Source: Hydrolagus affinis (taxonomy: Eukaryota). From it: DNA of 64,000 nucleotides. The stretch lies in assembly GCA_012026655.1 (NCBI GenBank), contig JAAILG010001613.1:1-64000 (forward strand), given 5' to 3'. The notes beneath the pieces were generated by a model. The model made no database searches, was not told the DNA's origin, and was given only the letters and a program-made list of their open reading frames with translations. Shown here in pieces: positions 12,601 to 15,230 of the stretch (positions are counted from its first letter, which is position 1; each line of letters opens with the position of its first letter). The position numbers were made by a program, and so were the translations under genes.

Positions 12601-14758
12601 GGGTAGAGATCAGAGAAAAGAAAGGGAATGGTCAATTCCTAAAAGGAAAAAGGATTTTAGTTGTACTGTACTTTGAAGTGAATTTTCCATTTTGGTTGTT
12701 AGTAAGAGTCATGTTACATACTGTAAGGCCTTGGAAACATTTCATTCATGGTGATGAAATGCTCAGTGGAAGGGAGATCTTGAATACAATGGCAGCAGAA
12801 GGGAGGGTTAGATCGGTGAGCAACATTCAGTTGCCAGTAGAGGTGAGTCAATGATTAGTTTACCACAAAGATATGGCAGCAAAGAAGCATACTCTGAAAT
12901 TTTTTTTTATTTAAGTTACAAATGGTTCACCCAATGCGATTGTACAAATTCCACAGGATTTTAAGCAAATATGAGTTTGTCTATTTTGGGTTGTGAAAAA
13001 ATATTCCAGAGTACATTTAGAACAAGAAGCTGTTGCGTACACAATGCCGTGCCCATGTGAAGCCACGCAATTCTGCAAAGTCTGTTAATTTTTAATTTTG
13101 TTTCAAAGAAGAAATAACTGTAAAGTGGCTAAACATATGGACACACCATGAACCATGGAGCCAGTGGGAAACACAGAAAGCAAGTGGTTAAAGGGAGTGA
13201 TATTCAGCAACACAGCAAAGGCACGGAGACAACGGCAGATGGAGTCACATCGCACACGCTGATTTCATTCTAAAAAGTGACCGGATGCAAGTCAACAACA
13301 GAGTGATAAACAGGAAGAATCCCCATGCAGCATGGTGCAAAACAAACCGAGGGAACAGACAGAAGTCCAGATAAGTGTGAAGAATCAAAAATCATGGCAG
13401 AAAGTTTAAAAAAAAGAAAAATCAAATCCATTTTCCAATCAAACCACCGAGTGCAGTTGACACCAAGCTTCGCTGACAATTTAGCAGATTAAAGCACACC
13501 CACACACCGCAGCACCCAATCCATGCAGTCACCTCTGCTACCATTGTTGTTCGCAAACGGTAAACTGCTTCCAGCTTTTGCACAACATATCAGATCGAGC
13601 TCCACGCAGAGCACTGAATATTAAGAGTCCCTAATAAGGGGCCAAGATTCTTGGTTCAGCCCATTCCCTGAAATAATCAGTTGAGCATACAGAGAACTAA
13701 AGCCAAAGGAACATATAAAGCTTAGATGTTGAAATATATGCCAGTCCATGTTAAGGGATATACATACAAGCTCATTTAATTTTTGTAATGGCATTCTCTT
13801 TCTTCCTTGTTACTTTCACCTTTCATGTTAGGTACATCTACAAAGCAGCTTTACTCTATGGATAGTACCTTCTGCTTGAAGATACATCAAGCATTAAAGG
13901 GCTAACAATATCACCTACCCTTGAAGTAAGTTTCCAACCATCATTATTTGCAGGCTTTCTATTAATGCTGAGCAAGGTTTGTCAGTTCACAAGATCTAAA
14001 GCTCCTTGGTTTCATTTGCTTTTATCTCCCCTTTGTTTATGCTCAACTGGGATACGCTGAGAAAAGCACAGCTTATTGTAGGCACCAAATAGTCCTAATA
14101 ATAATAATAATATTGTGTGGCAAACACCCTTAGGCTGATGTACTGAACAGGCTTGAAATGAAGTGAATTTAAAACGGGAAATGCCCTCATGAAAGTCGGT
14201 GATATGGAATGGAATGCGTTTTTCCAACCAGAGTAAATGTGAAGAATATGTACGCCAGTTATAACATGGGCCAGATACAGTTATACTTCAGTAAATTATG
14301 ATGATGATAAGACTTGAAATTCTACTTGTTTGGAGTCTAGATTTACTTTATTTATGTAACGTTTCAGAGTCCAGAATTTGACAAATTCTTAAACACAGTC
14401 TAAATTGTGTAGTGGTTTCTTTGCAAAAAATTTAAAAAAATTGATTGTGTGTTGTCTCAAAGTACTTCATGGGGTTCAATCTAAACGGTAGTGACTGTAT
14501 ATTTTGAAGGCAAACCTGGCAGCTCATTTTGCTCACAGCATTGTCTCACAGAAAGCAATGAAGTGCAATCTTATCTGGGGGGTTTGTTGGCCAAATTGCT
14601 TTAGAAAACTGGCTTAAAGTTAAAGACTGAATTACTGAATGTGCCAATGTCTGCACACTCTTAAGTGGCTTAGAAAATCAGAGAAAATCTCGACCTGTGA
14701 TTTTTTTCTCAGATGTGCTTTAACCCTATCCTTTCAAGGCATCCTCTTATTGGAGCAG

Positions 14759-14870
14759 TGTGGAGTCCAGTAGCTCACTGGTTAGAGAACTCGCTCGCAA
14801 ATCCTTGAGCAAGTTTCCTTACTCCACACATCTAATAATAATCCCCCCAAAAAATTGGTCACTCAATGAC
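14759..14870 (+). mobile_element. Family-A SINE 5' fragment, internally deleted
   Basis: ggagtccagtagctcactggttagagaactcgc...gtttccttactccac. Confidence 0.8.
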
Positions 14871-15230
14871 TTTTAGAAAATAAATAAGCTACAATTTAAT
14901 GACAACAAGCATTTCAAAATGTATGGGTAGATTTCAATTTTTTAGTATATTGGAAAATTATAGCACAATGAGATAAAGACTGAGAAATGTTGAGTCTCGG
15001 TGATGGGGTGTATGGTTGGATTAACGAGTGTTCAGCCTGTTCATTATACAACTCAGTCGGATTAATGAATTGCCAGTTACAGTCACCTGGGAATGGCAGC
15101 AAGAACCAAGCAGAAATCCCCAATTTGTTGTTACTTATTTTTGAAAGTTACCATTAGGTTGGGTGCAGCTGGAAGCAGCTCCATTGCGGTTCAGTCCCAC
15201 CACAGGAAAGAAGGGCTTCCAAGGCCTTAC

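Follow-up and report, generated by a model that had tools for sequence, protein, structure and literature searches.

Results

The 64,000-nucleotide stretch analyzed here, referred to as the window, carries SEMA6A on its minus strand. Among the best 120 of 1471 hits, the protein encoded by the last exon shows 98% identity to one from a chimaera and 86-90% identity to those of sharks and rays, and protein matches place the coding part of this exon, which specifies the transmembrane and cytoplasmic domains, at 7881..9055 (minus strand). The penultimate exon (15231..15392, minus strand), as judged from frame and splice sites, is 162 nt long and in frame, encodes part of the juxtamembrane ectodomain, and ends at the donor ACG|GUAAGG (15231/15230, minus strand). 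Its end motif is found in 37 of 120 listed SEMA6A proteins and missing from the other 83 (best 120 of 1471 hits), and database annotations hold both exon-plus and exon-minus forms from sharks, turtles, birds, and mammals. The 162-nt exon is a cassette across jawed vertebrates.

Further variation is visible around this exon. Tandem internal acceptors (CAGCAG) lie within it at 15350 and 15347 (minus strand) and agree with shark and ray isoforms that begin A(V/I)KEGY or VKEGY. Upstream on the same strand are a 21-nt microexon (18350-18370) and a 51-nt exon (18083-18133), both of which vary among annotated isoforms, with an ACUAAC at 18323 between them. In run X18, a separate record covers 15230-15393 and begins with 28 letters that fall outside the stretch; this hints only weakly at splicing and is not used as evidence here.

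The last intron contains a set of long-range complementary arms, all on the minus (transcript) strand. The first-pass annotation had proposed two inner helices, here H2 and H3, and all four of their arms were located where it had placed them. H2 begins 43 nt into the intron and joins arm 2 (15163..15188) to arm 2' (13552..13583) through 26 pairs with an energy of -36.8 kcal/mol, making it the strongest 30-nt duplex of the region. The perfect 12-bp core ascribed to H2 is 11 bp when counted as pure Watson-Crick pairs and 12 bp with a bulge shifted by one. H3 joins arm 3 (15089..15110), which holds the proximal copy of UGCUGCCAU together with a pyrimidine tract belonging to the decoy AG before 15086, to arm 3' (13650..13668), and consists, as proposed, of two 8-bp blocks with an energy of -25.3 kcal/mol, extending to about -35. 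Outside both lies H1, in which arm 1 (15203..15243) spans the final 13 bases of the exon, the donor, and the intron to +28, with a core from +1 to +14. Its partner, the anti-donor arm 1' (12710..12750), has its core at 12736-12723 and a UAAC half-site at 12716-12713, and the duplex scores -41.5 kcal/mol. The arm coordinates give the nested, pseudoknot-free order 1,2,3...3',2',1' that had been described; such an order alone is weak evidence of a real fold.

Folding of the whole region 15400-12600 recovers H1 and H2 and adds a helix missed in the first pass. This helix, H4, pairs arm 4 (13532..13547) with arm 4' (12786..12801) through 16 uninterrupted pairs (-28.4 kcal/mol). Arm 4 reaches a cryptic GAG|GUGACU donor, and arm 4' contains CUGCUGCCAUU, which is identical in SEMA6D. 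Because H4 starts 4 nt past the end of H2, H1, H2, and H4 close a three-way junction. One junction strand (12750..12766, minus strand) is rich in YCAY and identical to SEMA6D at 16 of 17 nt; its YCAY cluster merely ties for top rank. With energies of -25 to -41 kcal/mol and spans of 0.7-2.5 kb, H1-H4 fall within the limits for duplex length, stability, and distance that apply to PCCRs (a stable duplex of at least 10 nt, arms within 10 kb). No Rfam family matches at gathering score in 9000-20000. A local hairpin (-28.8) is also present within the H4 loop at 13043-13150 (minus strand), beside a YCAY cluster at 13167.

Ensemble probabilities are 0.97 for H1, 0.97 for H2, 0.94 for H4, and 0.77 for H3, values that are to be read with the unreliability of equilibrium folding over 2.8 kb in mind. 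H1, H2, and H4 are part of the minimum-energy fold in all tested segments that include both arms. H3 is missing from six of the six minimum-energy folds tested first, and forcing it costs 0.6 kcal/mol. It is the weakest helix, and it would fit the role of an early scaffold, because its probability rises to 0.99 when the transcript ends at 13620, just past arm 3'.

The arrangement exceeds what shuffled sequence provides: none of 1000 dinucleotide shuffles matches either the summed energy of the H1-H2-H3 triple (-114.6) or that of its weakest member (-34.7), with energies taken from a seed-and-extend scan and with block size and distance chosen after the case had been seen. Among other 200-nt blocks in the window, 3 of 1214 reach the sum, and all three trace to a single pair of inverted repeats near 1.2-3.8 kb; the energy of the weakest member is reached by 0 of 1214. 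Duplexes of -40 to -62 kcal/mol derived from repeats and G/C runs are frequent in the genome and often stronger than the arms. The arms themselves are no copies of an interspersed repeat, as an origin from SINE-type inverted repeats would have them; the 5' block has one genomic match, and contig depth is flat and single-copy across the arms, unlike the very high depth at 14330-14900. At 1244-3758, 21076-21729, and 14330-14900, an interspersed repeat has left inverted copies and remnants that form duplexes down to -62 kcal/mol.

At the cassette donor, H1 pairs bases +1 to +14 with a predicted energy of -26.5 kcal/mol compared with -8.7 for U1. In silico, then, the start of the intron pairs with a distant strand of the same intron in preference to U1, the arrangement known from SMN2. 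Of seven donors compared in this region of the gene, only that of the cassette exon has a downstream partner of this strength (-26.5 versus -12.8 to -18.5). Arm 2' was considered as an alternative partner of the donor and rejected as the main state, with -18.5 against -41.5 for arm 1'. H1 also overlaps the exon end, so that one arm lies at the regulated exon as in an RNA bridge. Donor function by itself constrains the six leading bases of arm 1, whether or not they pair.

From the sequence, a candidate 135-nt cryptic exon can be outlined at 13533..13667 (minus strand), with an in-frame stop after 15 codons and ends that fall in H3 and H4. H3 had been said to cover the AG|G acceptor at 13667. 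Arm 3' does cover the downstream bases and overlaps the G|G, whereas of the AG it covers just the G, because the AG occupies 13669-13668. The further idea that H3 serves as a mask on this acceptor is not upheld: 20 of 327 intron AGs match or beat it on a crude score, no isoform with the 13667 exon is found among the SEMA6A proteins listed (a listing that excludes truncated proteins), and H3 is missing from SEMA6D. The acceptor at 15086 is among the six best of the 327 AGs. This strong-looking AG is directly followed, at the end of arm 3, by GUGACU, resembling a recursive splice site (minus strand); GUGACUG also follows arm 4.

Two motifs of the form ACUAAY, at 12859 and 12703, are taken here to be QKI-type cores. 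The UACUAAC (12698..12704, minus strand) lies 5 nt beyond the end of H1, and the ACUAAU (12854..12859, minus strand) lies in the H4 loop. They are the only two ACUAAY cores in the 5.2 kb past the exon (to 9975), they flank arm 1', and the nearest is 2.4 kb from the cassette exon; in the window as a whole ACUAAY is not enriched (61 versus 72.8 expected). A candidate RBFOX-type UGCAUG (13522..13527, minus strand) has a second copy at 13329-13324; the assignment of UGCAUG to RBFOX follows the part of PMC7404189 available to us. UACUAAC is thus 5 nt from arm 1' and UGCAUG 25 nt from arm 2', and SEMA6D has a UGCAUG and two ACUAAC 100-230 nt past its own arm 1'. As given in the sections consulted, the published bridge definition calls for an eCLIP peak within 50 nt of the distal arm, compared with the sequence motifs used here (PMC8052449).

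Another repeated element was observed on the transcript strand. UGCUGCCAU occurs six times, at 18555, 15101, 12881, 12797, 12017, and 10512, all within the last two long introns; the remainder of the 64 kb has no copy on either strand. Six copies of any 9-mer arose in 0 of 300 shuffles, but one control block reached six. SEMA6D carries GCUGCCAU at both places homologous to UGCUGCCAU sites. UGCUGCCAU contains two YGCY plus a YCAY, presumably protein-binding motifs, and it could be a repeated protein site or provide repeated partners for arm 4. Arm 4 can pair with each of the six (-16 to -29), with a probability near 0 for the alternative proximal pairing. No duplicated exons follow the six copies, as a docking and selector arrangement of the Dscam type would have.

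In mouse Qki-knockout brain, Table S3 of PMC5548867 gives a fall in inclusion from 0.62-0.74 to 0.36-0.48 for a 165-nt Sema6a exon (FDR 4.7e-5) and from 0.71-0.78 to 0.48-0.52 for a 168-nt Sema6d exon (FDR 0.009), which amounts to a loss of about 0.25 for the matching exon in each gene. Oligodendrocyte loss may account for this effect indirectly. The mouse Sema6a intron measures 21 kb. The largest Sema6a change in that table is at the upstream 51-nt exon (0.67-0.80 to 0.08-0.17; PMC5548867), which appears to be the near-complete loss quoted in the portion of the text consulted. The mouse "exon 18" that is nearly lost in the knockout was therefore rejected as the cassette exon, whose own change is about 0.27.

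Comparison with an orthologous region (organism B) found no substitution in 15081-15312, one change in arm 2' that turns a G-C into a G-U pair at 13560, and one in arm 1' at its weak inner end. The arms thus hold 2 of 35 substitutions against 4.0 expected (P=0.21, not significant), a comparison drawn from 40 of 245 difference rows, mostly those of organism B, with the more distant organism D unscored. A metagenome scan yielded one locus (L002, bony-fish-like, last exon 60% identical) with none of the motifs in its 2.8 kb upstream, a segment that is probably too short to include them.

A search of the window's own genome returned three SEMA6 last exons, one of which is SEMA6D by its closest named proteins. 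At this locus (L008), an exon ending in EPLSAVPD has the donor G|GUAAGGCCUUUG. The exon is found in some shark SEMA6D isoforms and missing from others (P0144 compared with P0141 and P0142); its variability rests on such example isoforms, the automatic count of 32 of 120 being unanchored and unreliable. The donor has an H1 of its own at 2172-2184 / 3335-3347 of L008, with 13 bp, a probability of 0.97, and a donor score of -24.0. The pair at +11 is G-C in SEMA6A and U-A in SEMA6D, a compensatory change, and that at +2 is U-A in SEMA6A and U-G in SEMA6D; the compensatory evidence comprises one pair only, from one paralogue pair. A block about 1.15 kb past the SEMA6D donor aligns with the SEMA6A distal block with a score of 52, compared with at most 39 in 500 shuffles, and is the best non-repeat block of 111. 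It holds CUGCUGCCAUU, the 17-nt junction strand, and the anti-donor arm; the UAAC half-site of arm 1' is absent from SEMA6D. The 17-mer has two hits in 1.11 Gb, SEMA6A and SEMA6D alone; as the pattern was drawn from both genes, the informative part is that there are no others.

The inner helices have less complete counterparts. SEMA6D has an H2-like 13-bp pairing at the equivalent position, ranked first of 1508 windows with a runner-up partner just 0.6 kcal/mol worse, and a 9-bp H4-like pairing in the same helix order. Both have ensemble probabilities near 0, and a fold forced to include them is 12.7 kcal/mol less stable. The sequences of arms 2 and 2' do not align to SEMA6D, and no counterpart of H3 was found there. 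In the third SEMA6 paralogue (L004; L006 and L007), none of the motifs occurs within 20 kb upstream. Two side features of these loci were recorded: in L006 (G000:C543) an LGDCE-ending exon lies about 1.7 kb before the last exon, with no cassette exon noticed, and the SEMA6D last exon at L005 encodes a long poly-glutamine run in its cytoplasmic tail.

Discussion

Complementary arms in nested order, in excess of chance and with an H1 counterpart in SEMA6D, link the donor of an optional SEMA6A exon to a motif-bearing block 2.5 kb away. Four such arm pairs are predicted to fold this RNA into a compact junction over the donor. Gene identity, ensemble probabilities, shuffles, and the SEMA6D counterparts together speak for a genuine long-range fold under selection in the final SEMA6A intron, in line with the original suggestion of a real fold. 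Selection is very probable for H1 with the distal block and probable for H2; for H4 it is likely, with slightly less assurance, and for H3 the odds are only a little better than even. The SEMA6A feature is real and probably ancient. Both SEMA6A and SEMA6D have orthologues in sharks and tetrapods, and the element therefore predates the split of these lineages, which occurred more than 400 million years ago. The donor of SEMA6D is covered by equivalent complementarity, in which a base change on one arm is compensated on the other, and judging from sequence this complementarity is therefore likely an ancient splicing switch.

We favor, with a probability of roughly 0.6, a model in which H2 and H3 act as the scaffold of a long-range fold that masks the cassette donor and brings QKI-type motifs beside the exon. 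During synthesis, H3 would close first (+1.56 kb from the donor), followed by H2 (+1.65 kb) and H4 (+2.43 kb), and these closures would shrink the 2.5-kb loop to the three-way junction, allowing H1 to cover donor bases +1 to +14. U1 would compete with H1 at the donor, H1 is predicted to win on the energies given above, and the folded state would consequently favor skipping. Inclusion would be favored once QKI occupies the motifs that the fold brings near, possibly with help from RBFOX-type and other factors; QKI would either act from nearby or fray the outer end of H1. H2 and H3 would thus serve as scaffold and not as the business end of the structure.

The evidence weighs differently on accounts that assign the inner helices another part. 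Selection might act on H1 and the distal motif block alone, with H2 and especially H3 as lineage-specific or neutral riders. The missing SEMA6D alignment of arms 2 and 2', the missing SEMA6D H3, the near-zero probability of the H2-like helix, and the nonsignificant organism B test all point that way, but H2 is the strongest 30-nt duplex in its region, it abuts H4 at a distance of 4 nt so as to close the junction exactly, and SEMA6D has an H2-like pair at the equivalent place; we consider this account unlikely. It is quite unlikely that the inner helices mainly silence decoys, with H3 hiding the 15086 tract and the 13667 acceptor and H2' and H4 covering the body and donor of a 135-nt poison exon. 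All three 3' arms do lie on the candidate exon (13667-13533) with its in-frame stop, the 15086 acceptor ranks high, and PCCRs are reported, in the sections of PMC8052449 consulted, to obstruct cryptic sites. Against this, the exon shows no sign of being used, the acceptor at 13667 is unexceptional among intron AGs, SEMA6D has nothing similar, and an X18 contig (RNA by guess) runs unbroken over 12647-14328, though contigs drop rare forms.

Two other accounts concern H1 and the motifs themselves. The fold could be a purely activating RNA bridge in which H1 is transient or forms after U1 commitment, so that the net role is inclusion via activators. Arm 1' is made about 2.5 kb after the donor, which would leave U1 time to bind first; in ENAH and RALGAPA1 the bridges favor inclusion, according to the parts of PMC8052449 and PMC10790352 consulted, and inclusion falls with QKI loss (PMC5548867, Table S3). 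A bridge does not need the donor bases themselves to be paired, however, and they are paired in both paralogues, leaving this account a slim probability. It is highly improbable that the complementarity is incidental and that the motifs common to both genes work at the DNA level or as linear sites for proteins: the 17-nt junction strand and CUGCUGCCAUU are indeed conserved in sequence beyond pairing, and the energy advantage of the sense strand is small (2.5-3.7 kcal/mol per helix), but the G-C/U-A swap is compensatory, other changes are G-U only, and six of six UGCUGCCAU copies lie on the transcript strand.

The scaffold model would place the SEMA6A fold, by analogy, with the RNA bridges of RALGAPA1 and ENAH and with the donor-occluding interaction of SMN2, as these are described in the parts of the sources consulted. 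The RALGAPA1 candidate bridge likewise has nested long-range complementarity by a penultimate exon, with QKI and RBFOX2 sites brought close (Kalmykova et al. 2021, PMC8052449), and its exon is skipped upon QKI loss (PMC8052449); in SEMA6A, by contrast, the outer helix lies over the donor itself, a three-way junction is present, the feature is shared with a paralogue, and it is known from sequence, not CLIP. The bridge of ENAH exon 11a/12 also brings a distal motif, for RBFOX2, to a cassette exon by pairing and has nested extra helices, but it is experimentally validated and purely activating, with no donor masking in the description consulted (PMC8052449, PMC10790352). In SMN2 intron 7, the initial bases are occupied by a strand from deep within the intron, so that U1 is blocked and the exon is skipped, and the interaction can be targeted by antisense; its range is about 300 nt compared with 2.5 kb in SEMA6A and 1.15 kb in SEMA6D, and the portion of the description consulted does not include a paralogue-shared multi-helix junction (PMC7404189). 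The ISRE1/ISRE2 structure of the SCN-alpha genes is, in the preprint sections available to us, similarly intronic and paralogue-shared, with compensatory changes and conservation to elephant shark, and is read as an RBFOX bridge (bioRxiv 10.1101/2025.08.16.670673). It involves mutually exclusive exons and short diffuse pairings, whereas SEMA6A has one cassette exon and long continuous helices over its donor (bioRxiv 10.1101/2025.08.16.670673). The long-range structures of Drosophila CG33298 and Gug, as presented in the part of PMC10790352 consulted, differ in being in insect genes with no homology.

We found no description of a SEMA6 fold in the literature. SEMA6A and SEMA6D are absent from five supplements of PMC8052449, the full PCCR and RIC-seq lists aside, "sema" does not occur in the main text of PMC4174434, and PMC12391951 merely lists the two genes; the full PCCR lists could contain a human counterpart that goes unnamed.

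A bolder version of the model, which we put forward tentatively and regard as doubtful, is that an ancestral SEMA6A/SEMA6D three-way-junction switch locks the donor of the stalk exon until QKI opens it, that UGCUGCCAU strands compete for the docking arm, and that the switch persists in mammals and would explain the joint drop on QKI loss. More generally, the fold offers a concrete, testable reason for the QKI dependence of the Sema6a and Sema6d exons even though the QKI cores are 2.4 kb off. As the paralogues split before the divergence of sharks and bony vertebrates, their shared structure gives compensatory evidence of a kind that ultra-conserved orthologues usually cannot. It also names exact antisense targets, arm 1' and arm 2', for shifting the membrane-proximal stalk, which belongs to two proteins of axon guidance and myelination.
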